Source of the DNA: Escherichia phage Ec_MI-02
Length of the DNA stretch: 64,000 bases
Sequence record: OP856590.1
Strand: one strand, 5' to 3'
The notes under the pieces were generated by a model. That model was not told the DNA's origin. It saw only the letters and a program-made list of their open reading frames with translations, and did no database searches. Positions 1 through 27,570 of the stretch are shown piece by piece (the stretch's first letter is position 1; each line of letters opens with the position of its first letter). A program made the position numbers and the translations under genes.

Positions 1-1936
1 TCAAAGCACCGTGGTTAATAACTCTACTGGTACAGCAGCTTTGGCCGGTAAATTCCAGTGGGGTCCTGCTTTTCAAATTAAACAGGTTACAAATGAAGTA
101 GATTTAGTTAATACTTTTGGTCAACCTACAGCTGAAACTGCTGACTATTTTATGTCTGCAATGAATTTCTTACAATACGGAAATGATTTGCGAGTTGTGC
201 GTGCTGTCGATAGAGATACCGCTAAAAACTCATCTCCGATTGCCGGTAATATTGAATACACTATTTCTACCCCAGGTAGTAACTACGCGGTTGGAGATAA
301 AATCACGGTTAAGTATGTTTCAGAAGATGTTGAAACAGAATGTAAAGTTACCGAAGTAGATGCTGATGGAAAAATTAAGAAAATTAATATTCCTACCGCA
401 AAAATTATCGCTAAAGCGAAAGAAGTAGGCGAATATCCAGCATTAGGTTCTAACTGGACCGCGGAAATTTCTTCGTCTTCCTCTGGTTTAGCTGCAGTAA
501 TAACTCTTGGAAAAATTATTACTGATTCTGGTATTTTATTAGCTGAAATTGAAAATGCTGAAGCTGCTATGACAGCTGTTGACTTTCAAGCAAATCTCGA
601 AAAATATGGAATTCCAGGAGTAGTAGCTCTTTATCCAGGCGAGTTGGGCGATAAAATCGAAATTGAAATCGTATCTAAAGCTGACTACGCAAAAGGTGCT
701 TCTGCATTACTTCCAATTTATCCAGGTGGCGGAACACGCGCATCTACTGCCAAAGCAGTGTTTGGATATGGACCACAAACTGATTCACAATATGCTATTA
801 TAGTTCGTCGCAATGATGCTATTGTTCAAAGCGTTGTTCTTTCAACAAAGCGTGGTGAAAAAGATATTTACGATAGTAACATCTATATTGATGACTTTTT
901 CGCAAAAGGTGGTTCAGAATATATTTTCGCAACTGCACAAAACTGGCCAGAAGGCTTCTCTGGAATTTTAACTCTGTCTGGTGGATTATCATCAAATGCT
1001 GAAGTAACAGCAGGAGATTTGATGGAAGCTTGGGACTTCTTTGCTGACCGTGAATCTGTTGATGTTCAGTTGTTTATTGCGGGTTCTTGTGCCGGTGAAT
1101 CTTTAGAAACAGCATCTACTGTCCAAAAACACGTCGTTTCAATTGGGGATGCTCGCCAAGATTGCTTAGTACTGTGCTCACCGCCGCGCGAAACTGTAGT
1201 TGGAATTCCTGTAACTCGCGCTGTTGATAACTTAGTCAACTGGAGAACCGCAGCAGGTTCATACACTGATAATAACTTTAATATCAGTTCAACTTATGCA
1301 GCAATTGATGGTAACTACAAGTATCAGTATGACAAATATAATGATGTAAATCGTTGGGTTCCATTAGCAGCTGATATTGCTGGTTTATGCGCGAGAACCG
1401 ATAACGTTTCTCAGACTTGGATGTCTCCAGCTGGTTATAATCGCGGCCAGATTTTGAACGTTATTAAACTTGCTATTGAAACTCGCCAGGCGCAGCGCGA
1501 TCGTTTATACCAAGAAGCTATCAACCCAGTAACTGGTACAGGTGGTGATGGTTACGTATTGTATGGTGATAAAACAGCTACTTCTGTTCCTTCTCCATTT
1601 GATCGTATTAACGTTCGTCGTCTGTTTAATATGTTGAAAACGAATATCGGACGTAGTTCAAAATATCGTTTGTTCGAATTAAACAACGCGTTTACTCGTT
1701 CATCGTTCCGCACAGAAACTTCCCAGTACTTGCAGGGAATTAAAGCTCTCGGTGGAATTTATGAATATCGTGTAGTTTGCGATACAACAAATAACACTCC
1801 GTCAGTAATTGATAGAAATGAGTTTGTTGCAACATTCTACATCCAACCGGCTAGAAGCATTAACTACATTACCTTAAACTTCGTAGCAACTGCTACTGGT
1901 GCAGATTTCGATGAGTTAACTGGTCTTGCAGGTTAA
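1..1936 (+). CDS. 18: Tail sheath protein gp18, 5' end outside window
   Basis: Frame open from window edge to TAA 1934-1936; translation VVNNSTGTAALAGKFQWGPAFQ recalled as T4 gp18; followed by 19 and 20 in T4 order. Confidence 0.9.
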   Translation, partial: QSTVVNNSTGTAALAGKFQWGPAFQIKQVTNEVDLVNTFGQPTAETADYFMSAMNFLQYGNDLRVVRAVDRDTAKNSSPIAGNIEYTISTPGSNYAVGDKITVKYVSEDVETECKVTEVDADGKIKKINIPTAKIIAKAKEVGEYPALGSNWTAEISSSSSGLAAVITLGKIITDSGILLAEIENAEAAMTAVDFQANLEKYGIPGVVALYPGELGDKIEIEIVSKADYAKGASALLPIYPGGGTRASTAKAVFGYGPQTDSQYAIIVRRNDAIVQSVVLSTKRGEKDIYDSNIYIDDFFAKGGSEYIFATAQNWPEGFSGILTLSGGLSSNAEVTAGDLMEAWDFFADRESVDVQLFIAGSCAGESLETASTVQKHVVSIGDARQDCLVLCSPPRETVVGIPVTRAVDNLVNWRTAAGSYTDNNFNISSTYAAIDGNYKYQYDKYNDVNRWVPLAADIAGLCARTDNVSQTWMSPAGYNRGQILNVIKLAIETRQAQRDRLYQEAINPVTGTGGDGYVLYGDKTATSVPSPFDRINVRRLFNMLKTNIGRSSKYRLFELNNAFTRSSFRTETSQYLQGIKALGGIYEYRVVCDTTNNTPSVIDRNEFVATFYIQPARSINYITLNFVATATGADFDELTGLAG

Positions 1937-1952
1937 TACGGTGCATTCTAAA

Positions 1953-1970
1953 GGCCTGTTTCGGCAGGCC
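1953..1970 (+). terminator. Hairpin after gene 18
   Basis: GGCCTG / CAGGCC stem, 6-nt loop; no strong U tract. Confidence 0.35.
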
Positions 1971-1971
1971 A

Positions 1972-1979
1972 TATAAATA
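1972..1979 (+). promoter_or_regulatory. Late promoter TATAAATA upstream of gene 19
   Basis: Exact TATAAATA; a second copy at 2031-2038. Confidence 0.55.
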
Positions 1980-2030
1980 CACTATATCCTTAATTCTTTA
2001 ATTCTATATGCCCTAGGTTAAACATAGGGA

Positions 2031-2038
2031 TATAAATA
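2031..2038 (+). promoter_or_regulatory. Late promoter TATAAATA, gene 19 proximal
   Basis: Exact TATAAATA 15 nt before ATG 2053. Confidence 0.5.
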
Positions 2039-2052
2039 CTACAGAGGCTAAT

Positions 2053-2544
2053 ATGTTTGTAGATGATGTAACACGAGCGTTTGAATCTGGTGATTTTGCT
2101 CGACCTAACTTATTCCAAGTAGAAATTTCTTATCTTGGACAAAATTTTACGTTTCAATGCAAAGCCACTGCTTTACCAGCTGGTATTGTAGAAAAAATTC
2201 CAGTCGGTTTTATGAACCGTAAAATTAACGTAGCAGGCGATCGTACATTCGATGACTGGACTGTTACAGTAATGAACGATGAGGCACATGATGCTCGCCA
2301 GAAGTTTGTTGATTGGCAAAGCATTGCTGCTGGGCAAGGGAACGAAATTACTGGTGGAAAACCAGCAGAGTATAAAAAGAGCGCTGTTGTTCGCCAATAC
2401 GCTCGTGATGCTAAAACTGTAACAAAAGAAGTCGAAATTAAAGGCCTGTGGCCTACTAACGTGGGTGAACTTCAATTAGATTGGGATTCAAACAATGAAA
2501 TCCAAACCTTTGAAGTAACTCTTGCTCTCGATTATTGGGAATAA
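2053..2544 (+). CDS. 19: Tail tube protein gp19
   Basis: 163-aa ORF, ATG 2053 after AGAGG; sequence MFVDDVTRAFESGDFARPNLFQ recalled as T4 gp19; synteny. Confidence 0.9.
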   Translation: MFVDDVTRAFESGDFARPNLFQVEISYLGQNFTFQCKATALPAGIVEKIPVGFMNRKINVAGDRTFDDWTVTVMNDEAHDARQKFVDWQSIAAGQGNEITGGKPAEYKKSAVVRQYARDAKTVTKEVEIKGLWPTNVGELQLDWDSNNEIQTFEVTLALDYWE

Positions 2545-2576
2545 AATGAATGGGGAGAAATCCCCATCCTGCTTAA

Positions 2577-4201
<1,625 letters not shown>

Positions 4202-4202
<1 letters not shown>

Positions 4203-4459
4203 TGGAAGGTTTAATTGAAGCTATTAAATCAAACGACCTCGTAGCCGCTCGTAAATTCTTTGCTGAAGCCATGGCTGCAAGAACGATTGATTTAATTAAA
4301 GAAGAAAAAATCGCTATCGCTCGCAATTTCTTAATCGAAGGTGAAGAACCTGATGATGAGGATGATGACGAAGACGAGGATGATGAAGATAGCGATGATA
4401 AAGACGACAAAAAAGACAAAGACTCTGACGAAGATGACGAAGACGAGGATGATGAATAA
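4202..4459 (+). CDS. 67: Prohead core protein gp67 with poly-acidic C-terminus
   Basis: 85-aa ORF, TAATG overlap with gene 20; C-terminal D/E-rich tract; position between 20 and 68. Confidence 0.8.
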
Positions 4460-4884
4460 TGCTTCTGATCCCTGAAACTCATGAATTAGTTCTCGAGAAT
4501 GTCGAAGCACTTATTCCTGAAGCACAGGGTCGCTTTGACGAATTGTCTTCTGCTTTAAATAAAGACGATATAAATACAATTGTCGAGAATATGCTTGATG
4601 ATGAAACTGATTTAGCGATTGCATTAGCTTCTATTAATGAAGATATGCCGCTAAATGAATTCATCGTTAAACATGTTTCTGCTCGTGGTGAAATTACACG
4701 TACCAAAGACCGCAAAACGCGTGAACGTAATGCATTTCAAACCACCGGGCTGTCTAAAGCAAAACGTAGACAAATTGCTCGCAAAGCTACCAAAACGAAG
4801 ATTGCCAACCCAGCAGGTCAATCTCGTGCTCAGCGTAAGCGTAAAAAAGCTCTTAAACGCCGTAAAGCATTAGGATTAAGCTAA
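4459..4884 (+). CDS. 68: Prohead core protein gp68
   Basis: 141-aa ORF, TAATG overlaps at both ends; basic C-terminus; synteny. Confidence 0.8.
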
Positions 4885-5522
4885 TGAATGAACCCCAATT
4901 ACTAATTGAAACTTGGGGTCAACCTGGCGAAATTATTGATGGTGTGCCAATGCTTGAATCTCATGATGGAAAAGACCTAGGTTTAAAACCTGGTTTATAC
5001 ATCGAAGGAATATTCATGCAAGCGGAAGTCGTCAATAGAAATAAACGTCTTTATCCAAAACGCATATTAGAAAAAGCGGTAAAAGACTATATCAATGAGC
5101 AAGTTTTAACTAAACAAGCTCTCGGAGAATTAAATCATCCTCCACGCGCTAATGTTGACCCGATGCAAGCCGCTATCATTATAGAAGATATGTGGTGGAA
5201 AGGAAATGACGTATACGGACGAGCTCGTGTTATTGAAGGTGACCATGGTCCTGGAGATAAATTAGCAGCTAATATTCGTGCCGGATGGATTCCAGGAGTT
5301 TCTTCTCGTGGATTAGGTTCATTGACTGACACAAATAAAGGTTATCGTATCGTAAACGAAGGATTCAAATTAACTGTAGGTGTTGATGCAGTATGGGGTC
5401 CAAGTGCTCCAGATGCATGGGTAACTCCTAAGGAAATTACCGAATCACAGACGGCGGAAGCCGATACAAGTGCCGATGACGCCTATATGGCTCTCGCAGA
5501 GGCCATGAAAAAAGCGTTATAA
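4884..5522 (+). CDS. 21: Prohead core scaffold protease gp21
   Basis: 212-aa ORF (T4 gp21 length); synteny between 68 and 22. Confidence 0.85.
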   Translation: MNEPQLLIETWGQPGEIIDGVPMLESHDGKDLGLKPGLYIEGIFMQAEVVNRNKRLYPKRILEKAVKDYINEQVLTKQALGELNHPPRANVDPMQAAIIIEDMWWKGNDVYGRARVIEGDHGPGDKLAANIRAGWIPGVSSRGLGSLTDTNKGYRIVNEGFKLTVGVDAVWGPSAPDAWVTPKEITESQTAEADTSADDAYMALAEAMKKAL

Positions 5523-5525
5523 ATA
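5518..5525 (+). promoter_or_regulatory. Late promoter TATAAATA upstream of gene 22
   Basis: Exact motif overlapping gene 21 stop. Confidence 0.6.
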
Positions 5526-5552
5526 TTATTATCTAAACAACAGGACTACAAA

Positions 5553-6362
5553 ATGCTTAAAGAACAACTGATTGCTGAAGCGCAAAAAATTGATGCTTCC
5601 GTTGCTCTTGATAGTATTTTCGAATCAGTTAATATTTCTCCGGAAGCAAAAGAAACTTTCGGCACTGTATTCGAAGCTACCGTCAAGCAGCACGCCGTTA
5701 AATTAGCTGAATCTCATATCGCTAAAATTGCTGAAAAAGCAGAAGAAGAAGTAGAAAAAAATAAAGAAGAAGCCGAAGAAAAAGCTGAGAAGAAAATTGC
5801 TGAGCAAGCTTCTAAATTCATCGACCATCTTGCAAAAGAATGGCTCGCTGAAAATAAATTAGCAGTTGATAAAGGCATCAAAGCCGAACTGTTTGAATCC
5901 ATGCTAGGTGGATTAAAAGAGCTCTTTGTTGAACACAACGTTGTTGTTCCAGAAGAATCAGTTGATGTTGTAGCTGAAATGGAAGAAGAGCTGCAAGAAC
6001 ATAAAGAAGAATCAGCTCGTCTGTTCGAAGAACTCAATATGCGCGACGCATATATCAATTATGTGCAGCGTGAAGTGGCATTGAGCGAAAGTACTAAAGA
6101 TCTGACTGAGTCTCAAAAAGAAAAAGTCTCTGCTCTGGTCGAAGGTATGGATTATTCAGATGCATTCTCAAGTAAATTGAGTGCCATCGTAGAAATGGTG
6201 AAGAAGTCTAATAAAGATGAAAGCACTATTACTGAGGGTATAAATACTCCTGATACTGAAGCAGCCGGACTGAATTTCGTCACTGAAGCTGTAGAAGATA
6301 AAGCTGCACCTGGTGCAGAAGATATTGTAAGTGTATATGCGAAAGTCGCATCTCGTTTCTAA
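5553..6362 (+). CDS. 22: Prohead scaffolding protein gp22
   Basis: 269-aa ORF, E/K-rich, predicted helical; synteny; TATAAATA upstream. Confidence 0.85.
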   Translation: MLKEQLIAEAQKIDASVALDSIFESVNISPEAKETFGTVFEATVKQHAVKLAESHIAKIAEKAEEEVEKNKEEAEEKAEKKIAEQASKFIDHLAKEWLAENKLAVDKGIKAELFESMLGGLKELFVEHNVVVPEESVDVVAEMEEELQEHKEESARLFEELNMRDAYINYVQREVALSESTKDLTESQKEKVSALVEGMDYSDAFSSKLSAIVEMVKKSNKDESTITEGINTPDTEAAGLNFVTEAVEDKAAPGAEDIVSVYAKVASRF

Positions 6363-6380
6363 TTTTAAAGGTTAACACAA

Positions 6381-7946
6381 ATGACTATCAAAACTAAAGC
6401 TGAACTTTTGAACAAATGGAAGCCATTACTGGAAGGTGAAGGTTTACCGGAAATTGCTAATAGCAAACAAGCGATTATCGCTAAAATCTTTGAAAACCAG
6501 GAAAAAGATTTCCAGACAGCTCCAGAATATAAAGACGAAAAAATCGCTCAGGCGTTCGGTTCTTTCTTAACAGAAGCTGAAATCGGTGGTGACCACGGTT
6601 ACAACGCTACTAACATCGCTGCAGGTCAGACTTCTGGCGCAGTAACTCAGATTGGCCCAGCTGTTATGGGTATGGTACGTCGTGCTATTCCTAACCTGAT
6701 TGCTTTCGATATTTGCGGTGTTCAGCCGATGAACAGCCCGACTGGTCAGGTATTCGCACTGCGCGCAGTATATGGTAAAGACCCAATCGCTGCCGGCGCT
6801 AAAGAAGCATTCCACCCAATGTATGGTCCAGATGCAATGTTCTCTGGTCAGGGTGCTGCTAAGAAATTCACAGCTCTGGCTGCTAGCACACAAACCACAG
6901 TAGGTGATATCTATACTCACTTCTTCCAGGACACTGGTACTGTGTATCTGCAAGCTTCTGCTCAAGTAACAATTAGTGCAAGCGCAACTGACGCTGCTAA
7001 ATTAGATGCTGAAATTAAGAAACAAATGGAAGCTGGTGTACTGGTAGAAATCGCTGAAGGTATGGCTACTTCTATCGCTGAACTTCAGGAAGGTTTCAAC
7101 GGTTCTACCGATAACCCATGGAATGAAATGGGCTTCCGTATCGATAAACAAGTTATCGAAGCTAAATCTCGTCAGCTGAAAGCTGCTTACTCTATCGAAT
7201 TAGCACAAGACCTCCGCGCTGTTCACGGTATGGATGCTGATGCTGAACTGTCTGGTATTCTGGCTACCGAAATCATGCTGGAAATCAACCGCGAAGTTGT
7301 TGATTGGATTAACTACTCAGCTCAGGTTGGTAAATCTGGTATGACCCTGACTCCGGGTTCTAAAGCTGGTGTATTTGACTTCCAGGATCCGATTGATATT
7401 CGTGGTGCTCGCTGGGCGGGTGAATCCTTTAAAGCTCTGTTGTTCCAGATTGACAAAGAAGCAGTTGAAATTGCTCGTCAGACCGGTCGTGGTGAAGGTA
7501 ACTTCATTATCGCTTCCCGTAACGTAGTTAACGTTCTGGCTTCAGTTGATACTGGCATTTCTTATGCTGCACAGGGTCTGGCTACCGGCTTTAACACTGA
7601 TACTACCAAGTCAGTATTTGCTGGTGTTCTGGGTGGTAAATACCGTGTATATATCGACCAGTATGCTAAACAGGATTATTTCACTGTAGGTTATAAAGGT
7701 CCGAATGAAATGGATGCTGGTATTTACTACGCTCCATATGTAGCTCTGACTCCGCTGCGTGGTTCCGATCCGAAGAACTTCCAACCGGTAATGGGATTCA
7801 AAACTCGTTACGGTATCGGTATCAACCCATTTGCAGAATCCGCTGCTCAGGCTCCGGCTTCTCGCATCCAGAGCGGTATGCCTTCTATTCTGAATAGCCT
7901 TGGTAAAAACGCTTACTTCCGCCGTGTATATGTTAAAGGTATCTAA
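6381..7946 (+). CDS. 23: Major capsid protein gp23
   Basis: 521-aa ORF (T4 gp23 length), high-expression codon usage, strong terminator hairpin downstream. Confidence 0.95.
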   Translation: MTIKTKAELLNKWKPLLEGEGLPEIANSKQAIIAKIFENQEKDFQTAPEYKDEKIAQAFGSFLTEAEIGGDHGYNATNIAAGQTSGAVTQIGPAVMGMVRRAIPNLIAFDICGVQPMNSPTGQVFALRAVYGKDPIAAGAKEAFHPMYGPDAMFSGQGAAKKFTALAASTQTTVGDIYTHFFQDTGTVYLQASAQVTISASATDAAKLDAEIKKQMEAGVLVEIAEGMATSIAELQEGFNGSTDNPWNEMGFRIDKQVIEAKSRQLKAAYSIELAQDLRAVHGMDADAELSGILATEIMLEINREVVDWINYSAQVGKSGMTLTPGSKAGVFDFQDPIDIRGARWAGESFKALLFQIDKEAVEIARQTGRGEGNFIIASRNVVNVLASVDTGISYAAQGLATGFNTDTTKSVFAGVLGGKYRVYIDQYAKQDYFTVGYKGPNEMDAGIYYAPYVALTPLRGSDPKNFQPVMGFKTRYGIGINPFAESAAQAPASRIQSGMPSILNSLGKNAYFRRVYVKGI

Positions 7947-22834: not shown

Positions 22835-22837
22835 CAA

Positions 22838-22866
22838 TGGGGACCGAAAGGTCCCCATATTTTTAT
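22838..22866 (+). terminator. Terminator after gene 54
   Basis: TGGGGACC-GAAA-GGTCCCCA then TATTTTTATTT. Confidence 0.7.
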
Positions 22867-23153
22867 TTACGGAATGAAATAAAAGCAGCAACTGAAGCAA
22901 CTAAGCTGTCTTCAATATAAACTTCAATTTTTACCGGAGCTTCTGACTCAAATTTACCTGTTACTACACCTTGGAAAATGCTTTCAGTCTGCTCTGGCTT
23001 TGAAAAATTTTCAGAAGGAAAAATTCCGAACTTTTTATCTGTTCCAAAAATTTTGATAAATTCATCATAAACTGCTTCATTAAAAGCGTTATCAGCAGGA
23101 ATAACGCCTTCAACTACAAGTTCTTGACCTAAAAAGCGTAAAGAAGATTTCAT
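22863..23153 (-). CDS. alt.-3: Hypothetical protein (T4 alt.-3 position)
   Basis: 96-aa ORF downstream of the alt genes. Confidence 0.5.
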   Translation of the reverse strand: MKSSLRFLGQELVVEGVIPADNAFNEAVYDEFIKIFGTDKKFGIFPSENFSKPEQTESIFQGVVTGKFESEAPVKIEVYIEDSLVASVAAFISFRK

Positions 23154-23213
23154 TTTGTGTTCCTCATGTTATGTCAGTAAAACTATTGTAACACAACACG
23201 AGGGACTTGTAAA

Positions 23214-25271
23214 CTACATCTTGAACTTTTTAGACATTCCGTTGATGTTAACCAAAGAAGCCAAGATTTGAGAAACTTCGTTTTCCTCTTCTTTTGATTC
23301 TTCTACAAGGAATTGATTAAACCCAGCCATTGGACGAACTTCACCAGTTTCCATTAGATGATCGCCATCATATACCGATTCTTCTAATTGTTCAGAAGGA
23401 GGAACGATTGTGCCTTCGATTAGATACTTATTATAAGCAGTTTCTTTCATCATGTACGTGCTCACTTTATTAATCTTCAGCAAAATTCCACGCGGTAAAA
23501 TAACTTCAGCTTCTGATGGAAATCCTGATAAATGACCTGGAACGATAACTTTGATTCGCTCAGCCCCTTTAATTACCATACCTACGCTAGTTTCAGCATC
23601 TTCATTAGCATATGCAGAATGACTACCCATATGCATTAAATCTTCAGCATCAACAGAACCTTCTCCTTCACCAGAAAATACTGCGCCGGAATCATCTAGA
23701 GCCATATAGTTTTTACCATGCTCACCGAAGATATTTGGTTTAAGCGATGTTGATACGAAGTTCTTGAAATAGAACATTTTATTTTCAATATTATGACGTA
23801 AAGTTTTAAAAGTAACTTCTTGTCCACGATAAAGCGTAGTTCCCGGAGGAAGAACTGATCCTTTGGCAAAGGCAGAATCCATTGTCTCGATGTGTTTAAT
23901 AGCTCGTTCCATGTATTCTTCACGGGTAGAATCTGGTTTACCCAAGAGGAACGAGTTCATTTCAACATATGAATCTGCACAATAATCTTCGATTACATCA
24001 GACTCAGCCTGAGTCAGTCCTTTTGGAGTTACTTCGGTGCTTGCATATTCATATGCCTGAGCAGCAGATTCATTAATCAATTTATAAATGCCATTCATGA
24101 CAAATTGAATAATAGCTACCTTTTCGTCTGGTGTGGCTTTAGAACCTTTAACTAAATCATTGATAATTTTCTTAATAACATCAAAGCTATTAGAAATATT
24201 AATGTCAGCGAGATCGCTCAAAATTTTATCGGTTTTATAATCAAAAAATTCTTTATTCTTTAAATATTCTTGAGAACCTTGATGTGTTATATCGCTCTGC
24301 AGTCTGATAGACGGATCACGTAAACGTGCATGGGCCAATGCAATATGATTTCGGAAGCTTTCTAGTTCATAATCGCTAGATTTAAAACGAGAAGCACTTC
24401 TCATACCACCGATAGCTCCTTTTCCGAAGTTTGAACCAATCTGAATAACACCAGAGTTCATTGGTCCTTCTGCTTTATATACCGGAACTTTAGATTCAAA
24501 CTCTTGATATTTCTTGGCAGCGAAGCTATCACCCTGAAGCGAAGCATCTACAGTAGAATATTGAGCTTGTGCTGCCAATCGACGACTAATTTTAGTTTTC
24601 TGAATAACAGCTTGATCCGTGCGCTTATCATTTTCTAAAGCAATAGAAGCAGCAACAGCAACAGCTTTAGGAACAGCATTACCTGTTTTAACATCTACAT
24701 AAACATCACCAACCTTTGATTCAACTTTTGTGAATAACTCAGTTGAAATAGGAGGTACACCTGGAATGTCTTCTAAATTGGCATTTTTACGGTAAACCAT
24801 AATATATGCATACTTTTTATCATAATCCCAGATTTCCTTTAAAAGAACATATCGACCTGCTCCTTTAGTACGTACTAAACGGTCAGCAATAACTTGCATT
24901 TGACGAGCAGCTCCATTTGTTTTACTTTTTAGTACGCGGAATAGGCATGCGTCAATTTTATACTGTTTCATTGTTTGAAGAGCAGTATCAAAAACCGCAT
25001 TAATGACACCAATTGGATTTCCACCCAAGTTTTTAAGTTTAACTAATGATAGTTTCTCATTAACACCTATCATTACGATATGCATCATTTTATCGCCTGG
25101 CTTAACGTTTTTATTTGTATCACCACCAGAGGTGTATGTACAAAATCTAAATCCAGGAAGCACACTTTCTTCGCCGGCTTGAATAGCAAAAATTTGAGGT
25201 ATTTTATGCTTAGGATTTAAGTTAACAATCGGCGCCGAAGCGCCGTCAAATAATTCTGTAATAAGTTCCAT
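23214..25271 (-). CDS. Alt-like ADP-ribosyltransferase paralog, full length
   Basis: 685-aa ORF; N-terminal ~230 aa close to Alt incl. MELITE; C-terminal R (TLYRGQ), STS (FVSTSL) and ExE (EAEVILPRG) motifs. Confidence 0.75.
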   Translation of the reverse strand: MELITELFDGASAPIVNLNPKHKIPQIFAIQAGEESVLPGFRFCTYTSGGDTNKNVKPGDKMMHIVMIGVNEKLSLVKLKNLGGNPIGVINAVFDTALQTMKQYKIDACLFRVLKSKTNGAARQMQVIADRLVRTKGAGRYVLLKEIWDYDKKYAYIMVYRKNANLEDIPGVPPISTELFTKVESKVGDVYVDVKTGNAVPKAVAVAASIALENDKRTDQAVIQKTKISRRLAAQAQYSTVDASLQGDSFAAKKYQEFESKVPVYKAEGPMNSGVIQIGSNFGKGAIGGMRSASRFKSSDYELESFRNHIALAHARLRDPSIRLQSDITHQGSQEYLKNKEFFDYKTDKILSDLADINISNSFDVIKKIINDLVKGSKATPDEKVAIIQFVMNGIYKLINESAAQAYEYASTEVTPKGLTQAESDVIEDYCADSYVEMNSFLLGKPDSTREEYMERAIKHIETMDSAFAKGSVLPPGTTLYRGQEVTFKTLRHNIENKMFYFKNFVSTSLKPNIFGEHGKNYMALDDSGAVFSGEGEGSVDAEDLMHMGSHSAYANEDAETSVGMVIKGAERIKVIVPGHLSGFPSEAEVILPRGILLKINKVSTYMMKETAYNKYLIEGTIVPPSEQLEESVYDGDHLMETGEVRPMAGFNQFLVEESKEEENEVSQILASLVNINGMSKKFKM

Positions 25272-25274
25272 GAT

Positions 25275-27329
25275 TTATCCTTGAACGAACTTGTAAGGCA
25301 TGTTTGCAATATCTATGCAAGATGCAATAATTCCAAGAGATGATTCTACTTTTTGTTTAACATTTGATGAAACAAATGATGCAAAATCAACTCTGTCTTC
25401 TATTTCAATATCACCTGTCATTGCAACTACTTCACCGGTTTCCATTAGACGGTCACCGTCATAAATTACTGATTCGGTGAGTTCTTCTGTAGTCATAACT
25501 TCAGCTTGAATAAGCTTGTTGTTAGTTTTAGCTGTTCCATCATTGTAAGATGCGTCGGTTATTTTATTGACTTTGACCATCAATCCACGCGGCAAAATGA
25601 CTTCCATTTCATTTGAAGGCGCTAAACTTCCACCTGGTAAAACAACGTTGACTTTATCAGCCCCAGTAATAACCCATCCAATTCCAACTAAATTATCGCT
25701 AGAATTAACAAGTCCTTCATCGTTTTTATCGATAGAAATGTTTAGACGCTTTTCGTCTGGTAAAACACCCACAGCTGAATCAGTCATCCAAGTACCAAAA
25801 ATGTTTGGATATAATGATGTTGATACAAAATTTCTAAAATAAAAAACTCGATTTTTTACCAATGCTTCATATATTGAAGGTAACATTCGCTGTGAACGAT
25901 ATAAAGTAATACCTTTTGGCAGTCGATCACCATTTTTAAAGGCTGAATCTAAATTATCGATGGCTTGTTCTATTTCTGGTGCTGTTAAAATACTTGTACG
26001 CTCATCTGGATTATATAATCCCAAAAGAGCATTATTCATGTCTACATATCCTGAACCTACGTATTCACGAATTCCGCGTTTTTGTGCCGGTGTGTATTTA
26101 GATGAATCTTTATTTTCGACTATAGAATGCAATGACCATCCAACGGTAAGAGCATATCCACGTAATTCTCTTCGAATAATCTTTGTTTTTATTGCATTCC
26201 AAGAATTTTGCACTAACTCATTCGCAGCATCTTGATTTAAATGCGAATGCTTGTTAATATTTCTTTCTAACCAAGCACCTTTATATTTTTCTAAAGTATC
26301 ATCAACTATAGAAGCAATAGTTTCTAAAGTTTTTATTGAAGTAATAGATTCTTTTCGTAATCTTTCTAAAGCTTTATTTTTTATTTCTGCATTAACATCA
26401 GATTCTTTATCTTCAGGAATTATAGAAGCTTCTCTGAATGCCATTCCAGCTGTAACACTATTAAGAGCATTCTCTAATGCAAATCCTGAAGTAGAAATAA
26501 CAGTTAATTCGTTAGCATCAGAAATTAAAGGCGCGTCAGCGGGTTTATTTAATTCTGCTGCTGAAGCCTCAAATTTTTGAAACATTGGTGTTTCAAATCT
26601 AGAAGATTCTAACGATTGACTTTGTGCAATTGCTCTACGGGAAATTTTAACTTTAACGATTACAGCTTGATCAGAACGTTTATCGTTTTCTTGCGCAATA
26701 GATGCTGCAATTGCCTCATTTTTAGTTACTTGAGCTCCAGTATCTTTATTGATATAAACATCACCGACCTTCGATTCAACTTTAGTAAAGAGCTCGGTAC
26801 TAATTTCCGGAACTCCTGGAATGTCTTCTAATGATACATTTTTGCGATGTATAAGAATATATGCGTACTTTTTATCGTAATCCCAGAGTTCCTTAAGAAG
26901 GACGTATCTGCCACCTGAACGACTGCGGATAAGTCTATCAGCAATAAGTTGAATTTGACGAGCTTGACCAGCAGTTTTAGACTTAAGAATACGGAGCATA
27001 CAGGCATCAATTTTATACTGACGCATCGTCTGCATCGCAACAGTAAAAACTGAATTGATGTAATTAATTGGGCTTGGACCGAGACCTTTTAATTTAGCAA
27101 TTGAACCTTTGGCAGTTAATGTAAAAGGAACAATATGCATCATTTTATCGCCCATCTTTAAATCGCGATTAGTATCACCTCCAGATGTATAAGTACATAA
27201 ACGAAAGCCTGGTTGTTCAATTGCGTCATCAACATGAACTGAAAAAATTTGCGGTATTTTCTTCTTTGGATTTAAGTTTGTAATCGGAAGAGTAGTATCT
27301 TCGTCAAATAATTCTGTAATAAGTTCCAT
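25275..27329 (-). CDS. alt: Alt ADP-ribosyltransferase (head-packaged, injected)
   Basis: Table ORF has two N-terminal ATGs; second (27327-27329) has better SD spacing; R/STS/ExE motifs (TLYRSQ, FVSTSL, EMEVILPRG); TATAAATA upstream. Confidence 0.85.
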   Translation of the reverse strand: MELITELFDEDTTLPITNLNPKKKIPQIFSVHVDDAIEQPGFRLCTYTSGGDTNRDLKMGDKMMHIVPFTLTAKGSIAKLKGLGPSPINYINSVFTVAMQTMRQYKIDACMLRILKSKTAGQARQIQLIADRLIRSRSGGRYVLLKELWDYDKKYAYILIHRKNVSLEDIPGVPEISTELFTKVESKVGDVYINKDTGAQVTKNEAIAASIAQENDKRSDQAVIVKVKISRRAIAQSQSLESSRFETPMFQKFEASAAELNKPADAPLISDANELTVISTSGFALENALNSVTAGMAFREASIIPEDKESDVNAEIKNKALERLRKESITSIKTLETIASIVDDTLEKYKGAWLERNINKHSHLNQDAANELVQNSWNAIKTKIIRRELRGYALTVGWSLHSIVENKDSSKYTPAQKRGIREYVGSGYVDMNNALLGLYNPDERTSILTAPEIEQAIDNLDSAFKNGDRLPKGITLYRSQRMLPSIYEALVKNRVFYFRNFVSTSLYPNIFGTWMTDSAVGVLPDEKRLNISIDKNDEGLVNSSDNLVGIGWVITGADKVNVVLPGGSLAPSNEMEVILPRGLMVKVNKITDASYNDGTAKTNNKLIQAEVMTTEELTESVIYDGDRLMETGEVVAMTGDIEIEDRVDFASFVSSNVKQKVESSLGIIASCIDIANMPYKFVQG

Positions 27330-27352
27330 CATATCCTCTCTAGTGTTTATTC

Positions 27353-27360
27353 TATTTATA
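27353..27360 (-). promoter_or_regulatory. Late promoter TATAAATA upstream of alt
   Basis: Reverse complement TATTTATA; 24 nt upstream of alt ATG. Confidence 0.55.
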
Positions 27361-27365
27361 AAATT

Positions 27366-27383
27366 AAAGGCCCGAAGGCCTTT
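27366..27383. terminator. Hairpin between ligase-proximal ORF and alt promoter
   Basis: AAAGGCC-CGAA-GGCCTTT. Confidence 0.45.
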
Positions 27384-27570
27384 AATAATCTATTGGTAAG
27401 AGAGTACGGTATATTTCAAACTTTGGACCTTTTTCATAGGCATCAAATGTTTCTGTGAATTTATTATAAGCATATGCATCTATAAATTCAATCATAATTT
27501 GTGATACAGAAGTAGAAACATCTCCACCTTCTTTTTGAGCCACGACAATTGTTTCTAAATAAGCTTTCAT
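27382..27570 (-). CDS. Hypothetical small protein between ligase and alt
   Basis: 62-aa ORF, ATGA overlap with ligase stop. Confidence 0.5.
   Translation of the reverse strand: MKAYLETIVVAQKEGGDVSTSVSQIMIEFIDAYAYNKFTETFDAYEKGPKFEIYRTLLPIDY

Follow-up and report, generated by a model that had tools for sequence, protein, structure and literature searches.

The 64,000-nucleotide stretch of Escherichia phage Ec_MI-02 analysed here (OP856590.1; referred to as the window, with all coordinates given on it) carries two adjacent genes of the T4 Alt family on its minus strand. The upstream gene is alt itself. The downstream paralog, at 23214-25271 (-), is named AltP here and corresponds to 'alt.-2' in the records of phages RB14 and T6. 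We consider AltP to be probably a functional second arginine-specific mono-ADP-ribosyltransferase (ART) of the T4 Alt family, which would be co-expressed late with Alt, packaged into the head, processed by the prohead protease gp21 and injected into the host. In phage T4 the same locus holds only alt.-1 and alt.-2, which, judging by the alignments, are a frameshifted and internally deleted remnant of the AltP gene.

A 4.1-kb region of the window was 99.2% identical to Shigella phage pSs-1, and the genome belongs to Tequatrovirus. The gene order was that of T4: gp48, gp54, alt.-3, the two alt genes, alt.1 and the gene 30 ligase. An earlier note, made from the sequence letters alone, had described two tandem alt-type open reading frames (ORFs) on the minus strand with a 3-nt gap, and the ORF list confirmed this arrangement with an upstream ORF at 25275-27332 (-), 685 aa long and opening with MM, and a downstream ORF at 23214-25271 (-), also of 685 aa. 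The gene alt opens with two in-frame ATGs (ATGATG, 27327-27332). From the sequence context, the start at 27329 (MELITE, 684 aa) is the better one compared with 27332: it is preceded by GAGG at a distance of 5 nt and coincides with the start of T4 Alt. The 3-nt spacing between alt and AltP was also present in pSs-1, T2, T6, RB14, phiD1 and Dhakavirus IME341. The two genes and their junction are as follows.

25275..27329, minus strand: alt, the T4 Alt ortholog, 684 aa plus stop (96% identity to T4 Alt; PF03496, E = 4.7e-34).
25278..25282, minus strand: Shine-Dalgarno sequence AAGGA of AltP, within the last alt codons and 6 nt upstream of the AltP ATG (sequence read).
25272..25274, minus strand: 3-nt spacer atc between the alt stop codon TAA (25275-25277) and the AltP ATG (25269-25271) (sequence read).
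23214..25271, minus strand: AltP, 685 aa plus stop (ORF list, BLASTP, Pfam, phrog, and the ratio of nonsynonymous to synonymous substitution rates, dN/dS).

AltP was assigned to the ADP-ribosyltransferases by searches against family profiles. The Pfam family PF03496 (ADPrib_exo_Tox) matched residues 416-620 with 72.8 bits (E = 3.2e-20), compared with 117.9 bits for Alt, both above the gathering threshold of 23.4 bits, and AltP matched phrog_802 ('Alt-like') from end to end (E = 4e-255). The domain and its catalytic residues were located as listed.

23379..24026, minus strand: ADP-ribosyltransferase domain, residues 416-631 (PF03496, invariant catalytic residues, Foldseek matches).
23826-23828, minus strand: R482, in TTLYRGQ, the catalytic Arg of the strand beta-1 motif [YF]-R.
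23745-23753, minus strand: S507-T-S509, the S-T-S motif in NFVSTSL.
23505-23513, minus strand: E587-A-E589, the E-x-E motif of the ADP-ribosylating turn-turn (ARTT) loop.

R482, S507/S509 and E587/E589 were invariant in family alignments of 11 and 16 sequences (42-93% identity), as were the surrounding blocks FYFxNFVSTS and ExEVILPRG. The signatures TLYR, FVSTSL and EAEVILPRG or EMEVILPRG, which the earlier note had read in the two proteins, were all found, and the alignment it had proposed as a check for the loss of a catalytic triad residue showed all of them retained. The Alt counterparts are R478, S503-T-S505 and E574-M-E576, and the LYR of Alt aligns with VYR of CdtA. The mutation E577A abolishes the ADP-ribosylation activity of T4 Alt (PMC11404850), and the position changed in it seems to correspond to the second Glu in the ExE motif of Alt. 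By our count the ExE glutamates of T4 Alt (682 aa) are 574 and 576, so the second is one below the published number. Both the 7-residue Alt propeptide of PMC9026906 and the catalytic Glu 577 of PMC11404850 are one above a count based on MELITE, an offset that may come from some authors counting from the upstream ATG of the ATGATG.

The AlphaFold (AF2) model of AltP had a mean predicted local distance difference test (pLDDT) score of 76.8 and a predicted template modelling (pTM) score of 0.68. Its ART part matched Vis, C3bot, CDTa, VIP2, Iota Ia and C2-I in Foldseek (E = 2e-6 to 1e-3, prob 1.00); the top match was Vis (4xzj, E = 2.1e-6), and C3bot2 was also matched. This predicted ART-like fold of the C-terminal domain is what the structure-prediction check suggested by the earlier note returned. 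AltP has its predicted fold in common with the C3-like and binary toxins of PF03496 (C3bot, Vis, CDTa, Iota Ia, VIP2, C2-I), as well as the active-site signature R / S-T-S / E-x-E, but sequence identity is only 15-20%. Those proteins are secreted bacterial toxins with eukaryotic targets, whereas AltP comes from a phage and has, in addition, an N-terminal domain, a central domain and predicted prohead-protease propeptides. A PDB sequence search with full-length AltP gave no match, and no solved structure of Alt or AltP was found in the PDB sequence searches. A profile search from the family alignments (alignment A1) added no distant relatives.

Selection on the gene was estimated by the Nei-Gojobori method across six phages (window, pSs-1, T2, T6, RB14, phiD1), in all of which the 685-aa ORF was intact. 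The dN/dS of AltP was 0.03-0.05 overall and 0.02-0.11 by domain, at synonymous divergences (dS) of up to 0.25, and it was lowest in the ART domain (0.02-0.05). Compared with the window, and leaving aside the near-identical pSs-1, each pair differed at 70-94 synonymous and 11-16 nonsynonymous positions. AltP is under strong purifying selection. The proposal of the earlier note that the downstream gene is an intact Alt-family ART therefore holds on the PF03496 match, the invariant R-S-E residues, the predicted ART fold and a dN/dS of about 0.04.

Both proteins begin with MELITELFD, as had been noticed before, and T4 Alt (gpAlt, NP_049811; 682 aa) is close in length to AltP (685 aa). Overall, AltP and Alt were 42% identical (BLASTP, E = 3e-158), and in MAFFT alignments the identity was approximately 67% for residues 1-240 (161/240 columns), 15% for residues 240-415 and 35% for the remainder, the ART region. 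The N-termini are thus clearly related and not 'near-identical', as the earlier note had put it. Its description of the central regions as unrelated was fair at the sequence level, since the central segments alone (Alt 237-405 and AltP 236-415) showed no significant similarity (BLASTP, E = 3.3). The two proteins have a common architecture of N-propeptide, N-domain, helical middle, R-S-E ART domain and C-propeptide, with both gp21 motifs and the catalytic R/STS/ExE residues kept, and the AltP gene adjoins alt in what is apparently the same late operon. They differ in the 180 central residues, which have no detectable similarity, and in the loop of the ART domain between STS and ExE, which is unlike in length and sequence. 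The parts of AltP outside the ART domain are the following.

25254..25271, minus strand: residues 1-6 (MELITE), predicted N-propeptide ending in the gp21 motif I-T-E, identical to the mapped T4 Alt site ITE-6.
24567..25253, minus strand: residues 7-235, alpha/beta N-domain in common with Alt (about 67% identity), with a predicted GNAT-like fold (alignment and model).
24027..24566, minus strand: residues 236-415, paralog-specific helical central domain (BLASTP, model, dN/dS).
23217..23378, minus strand: residues 632-685, predicted C-propeptide after L629-E-E631, with the motifs YDGDxLMETGE and terminal KF; aligns with T4 Alt, where LTE-619 is followed by SVIYDGD.

The gp21 cleavage sites of T4 Alt have been mapped to ITE-6 and LTE-619, and the mature protein has a mass of 68.2 kDa (Ali et al. 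2017, PMC5694885); the processing is also covered in PMC9026906. The window Alt has both sites, ITE-6 and LTE-619, and its residues 7-619 compute to 68.2 kDa, the mass reported for mature T4 Alt. The N-terminal gp21 motif that the earlier note had pointed out in AltP is present as ITE-6, identical to the mapped T4 Alt site. In addition, L629-E-E631-S of AltP aligns with L617-T-E619-S of Alt, so that the proposal of packaging and injection is better supported than first thought, because the second mapped gp21 site (LEE-631) is also kept. E6 and E631 were invariant across the family alignments (E631 in 16/16 sequences), and nearly all of the 66 family representatives had a motif [LI]xE-[VL]-[FL]-D close to the N-terminus, at varying distances from the Met. 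The model of AltP had pLDDT values below 50 at residues 630-685, coinciding with the predicted C-propeptide. The predicted mature AltP comprises residues 7-631 (69.1 kDa). With these motifs, AltP is most likely head-packaged, processed and injected. The database name 'RNA polymerase ADP-ribosyltransferase' has been transferred to AltP by homology only.

The fold of the N-domain is also found in other phage proteins, joined to unlike C-terminal parts. PF26846 is given beside PF03496 in the precomputed protein-database annotations of both lineages, where its position within the protein is not shown. The central domain of AltP was helical in the model, and its dN/dS was 0.03-0.11. A word-indexed protein search with this domain alone returned a single fragment. 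CesA came up as a sub-threshold Pfam match (E = 0.026) and was disregarded. At 50% identity, the Alt family fell into 114 clusters in a set of 1.84 billion representatives, and since many of these clusters align in the N-domain and the ART domain only, a variable centre is a family-wide feature.

The earlier note had left open whether the T4 counterpart, alt.-1/alt.-2, is intact, and the alignments showed that it is not. The T4 DNA of this region aligned at 96-97% to window positions 25320-24933 and then jumped to 23233-22819 (blastn and global alignment). The lesions are listed below.

23225..24923, minus strand: segment of 1,699 bp absent from T4 (blastn and global alignment).
24924-24932 and 23225-23233, minus strand: 9-bp direct repeats CTAAAAAGT bounding the T4 deletion (alignment).
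25112, minus strand: one nucleotide of an A-run (codon ~54) missing from T4, a loss that splits the remnant into alt.-1 and alt.-2 (alignment blocks and translations).

The T4 genes alt.-1 (NP_049810) and alt.-2 (NP_049809) occupy the same locus as AltP, and the first ~350 nt, the last ~20 nt and the downstream spacer are 96-97% identical. In contrast, codons ~117-682 are gone and a frameshift has been added, leaving two short ORFs without an ART domain. The frameshift position, 25112, lies in a homopolymeric A tract (GATACAAATAAAAACG), a context prone to slippage. GenBank annotates the T4 genes as an 'old duplication of the first part of gene alt'; on the present alignment, what this describes is the remnant of a full-length second alt gene and not a full-length ancestor. 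As reconstructed from these junctions, T4 lost the gene through a microhomology-mediated 1,699-bp deletion and a frameshift, and the intact gene is ancestral.

The distribution was counted in records, which include RefSeq/GenBank duplicates and laboratory derivatives of T4. At an identity of at least 90% and a coverage of at least 80%, the segment deleted from T4 was present in 401/461 matching phage records, including T2, T6, RB3, RB6, RB14, RB33 and RB68, and the AltP sequence was 94-99% conserved in approximately 400 records. Intact AltP is the majority state in Tequatrovirus. The T4-type deletion junction was contiguous in 91/499 records. All 91 have the identical junction, which suggests that the T4-type deletions go back to a single event.

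AltP was 98% identical among T2, T6, RB14, phiD1 and the window, whereas Alt occurred in at least two divergent alleles: the type found in the window and T4 has 682-684 aa, and that of T2, T6, RB14 and phiD1 has 697 aa. Comparison of window 25275-27329 with T2 (5043-7136 of the stretch examined), T6 and RB14 showed that the two types have ~100% identity over residues 1-240 and over the final ~80 residues, whereas the centre has ~35% (E = 3e-31) and most of the ART domain 60-80%, with lower values across the STS-ExE loop. This mosaic looks like a cassette exchange by recombination between conserved flanks. Both window genes were matched over at least 80% of their length in 118/500 records. As far as these sequences go, the locus is a polymorphic enzyme beside a conserved one.

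Outside Tequatrovirus, the same arrangement was found in Dhakavirus, in which a downstream Alt copy (JS98/JS10/IME341 gp077, 707 aa) likewise follows alt after a 3-nt spacer and precedes alt.-3. In IME341 the tandem spans 1913-6124 of the stretch examined. The Dhakavirus copy has a central domain homologous to that of AltP (45% identity in IME341, E = 1e-49) and an overall identity of 47-48% to it, but its divergence is much greater and the insert in its ART loop is longer. In a rough neighbour-joining tree of 66 family members, built on gap-poor columns and with unreliable deep branches, it was not the sister of AltP. We gave this tree little weight, because the direct comparison of the central domains did recover the relationship. 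The proposed orthology is based on the central-domain match and synteny. Since the IME341 copy shares the AltP central domain, the AltP lineage appears to predate the split of Tequatrovirus and Dhakavirus. Elsewhere in the Straboviridae, the genera sampled (Mosigvirus-like coliphages; Klebsiella, Acinetobacter and Proteus phages) had, for the most part, one Alt-like place per genome (tblastn).

In the databases, AltP is listed as 'alt.-2 hypothetical protein' (RB14), 'apparent insertion in alt.-2; also similar to alt' (T6) and 'Alt-like RNA polymerase ADP-ribosyltransferase' (RefSeq). In Shigella phage sb4 (PQ666542.1, 123935-128047) the locus is 96.9% identical and the annotation has four ART fragments and two hypothetical proteins in place of the two alt genes, which suggests frameshifts, whether from sequencing errors or from real disruptions.

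The signals and neighbours that frame the two genes are listed below.

27366..27383, minus strand: G+C hairpin aaaggcc-ttcg-ggccttt followed by a T-rich tract, directly after the alt.1 stop and before the alt late promoter (sequence read, tentative).
27353..27360, minus strand: T4-type late promoter core TATAAATA, 24 nt upstream of the alt start codon (exact-pattern scan).
23185..23213, minus strand: sigma-70 or T4-early-like promoter (G)TTTACA-17-TACAAT with a TG extension, upstream of alt.-3 (promoter scan).
22863..23153, minus strand: alt.-3, 96 aa, DUF5498, the downstream neighbour (PF17602, E = 1.4e-64; T4 synteny).
22837..22858, either strand: strong bidirectional intrinsic terminator with a 9-bp stem and 6 G-C pairs, between alt.-3 and gene 54 (terminator scan).

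The element at 27353-27360 was the only perfect late-promoter match on the minus strand between 22800 and 27700. Just upstream of AltP there was no perfect late box and no convincing MotA box that could serve as a promoter of its own; a MotA-like box at 24636-24644 is internal to the AltP gene and was disregarded. The layout suggests a bicistronic late alt-AltP message as its simplest reading, and the terminator at 22837..22858 is likely the end of the alt-AltP(-alt.-3) transcript. The hairpin at 27366..27383, which was not picked up by the simple terminator scan, is possibly a terminator or attenuator of upstream early or middle transcripts. The early-like promoter sits right after the AltP stop codon, and a GTTTAC -35 element is the T4 early consensus (PMC1524935). 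The gene alt.-3 may thus be expressed early and independently of the late alt genes. Upstream, alt.1 is a small ORF of 62 aa (27382-27570, minus strand) with a Pfam match to PF24647, 'Phage blade protein' (E = 7.5e-29). In the virion proteome of phiD1, the homologues of alt.-3 (Gp199) and alt.1 (Gp202) were detected below the strict threshold (PMC8309999).

We hypothesize the following course of events. AltP would be transcribed late, on the alt message from the single late promoter at 27353-27360, and translated from its own Shine-Dalgarno sequence, starting 3 nt past the alt stop codon. It would enter the prohead core by means of the N-domain and the terminal propeptides it has in common with Alt, and gp21 would trim it after E6 and E631 to a mature protein of ~69 kDa. 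Injected with the DNA, it would ADP-ribosylate host proteins at the very start of infection. The helical central domain (236-415), unrelated to that of Alt, would probably give it a different set of targets.

Several points weigh against this account. The presence of AltP in the virion and its ADP-ribosylation activity are what we infer from its sequence, and the co-transcription with alt is deduced from consensus motifs only. Fold and Pfam searches with the central domain gave nothing, and its role in target choice is a conjecture. AltP is also dispensable on at least some hosts, as T4 and about 90 other records are without the gene. AltP might instead be an active ART that stays unpackaged and acts inside the cell late, or early from read-through, in the manner of ModA and ModB, which are not injected. 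This would fit with the hairpin after alt.1, which is no strong terminator and makes early read-through from gene 30 possible. We nevertheless consider it unlikely, since the N-propeptide, the N-domain, the C-propeptide and both gp21 sites are under strong purifying selection, which is hard to explain outside the prohead. ModA and ModB are ARTs of ~200 aa (their phiD1 homologues have 200 and 207 aa), too short to carry the N-domain and propeptide modules of Alt.

The conserved part of AltP could also be the functional one, given that the N-domain fold recurs with different C-terminal parts and that Alt is on record both as an enzyme and as a protein of the core (PMC11404850). AltP would then be mainly a structural or scaffolding component of the core, or a catalytically dead paralog serving head assembly or the delivery of something else. 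The invariance of all catalytic residues and of the motifs around them (FYFxNFVSTS, E-x-E-V-I-L-P-R-G) makes this somewhat less likely still, as does the dN/dS of the ART domain, the lowest in the protein, where a dead enzyme would be expected to drift. That AltP is a decaying duplicate without function, a pseudogene in the making, is extremely improbable. The disrupted copy in T4 and in 91 records and the fragmented annotation of some records, e.g. phage sb4, would agree with decay, but the shared deletion junction in the 91 records points to a single event and not to recurrent decay. The ORF of 685 aa is intact in six phages with a large excess of synonymous differences (70-94 against 11-16), the sequence is 94-99% conserved in ~400 records, and a dN/dS of about 0.04 effectively rules out the pseudogene reading. 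A functional, packaged and injected second ART is therefore the explanation we prefer for AltP.

Duplication of alt has been reported for T4 alt.-1/alt.-2 and for ORF187c of phage 44RR (Nolan et al. 2006, PMC1524935), and for phages ZZ1, Ac42, JS98 and Bp7 (Jin et al. 2014, PMC4177764). Our full-text literature searches found no functional study of AltP, only notes of the alt duplication. The novelty implied by the earlier note does not hold: the full-length paralog occurs, already annotated, in about 401 records including T2, T6 and RB14, and the duplication of alt is in print. AltP belongs to a known family, is widespread and has been annotated before; it is not new in kind. The value of the present analysis lies in redirecting attention and not in a new kind of system, given that gene, family and duplication are on record. 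What it adds is the exact nature of the T4 lesion and the position of T4 as the exception, the evidence from selection and processing motifs, and the contrast between a polymorphic Alt and a conserved AltP.

T4 serves as the model of ADP-ribosylation by phages, and Alt, ModA and ModB, the three ARTs it has, are taken to be the T-even set. In this respect T4 is atypical, as an intact and strongly constrained second Alt is retained in about four fifths of the Tequatrovirus records sequenced, T2 and T6 among them. A wider reading, to which we give somewhat less than an even chance, is that most T-even phages (including T2 and T6) inject two different Alt-type ARTs, and that AltP is a fourth T-even ART with host targets of its own, perhaps a factor of defence or translation and not RNA polymerase. 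T4 would have lost AltP by a single deletion, so that five decades of work on host takeover by T4 would have missed it. In the same reading, the N-domain would be a GNAT-like module that stands at the N-terminus of other phage effector-like proteins, with annotations such as zeta-toxin, deaminase and ParB/Srx, and acts as a general handle for capsid delivery. If AltP is packaged and active, the early reprogramming of the host in most T-even phages has an extra injected enzyme, and this could be a reason why T4 differs from T2/T6 in host range or in sensitivity to defence systems.

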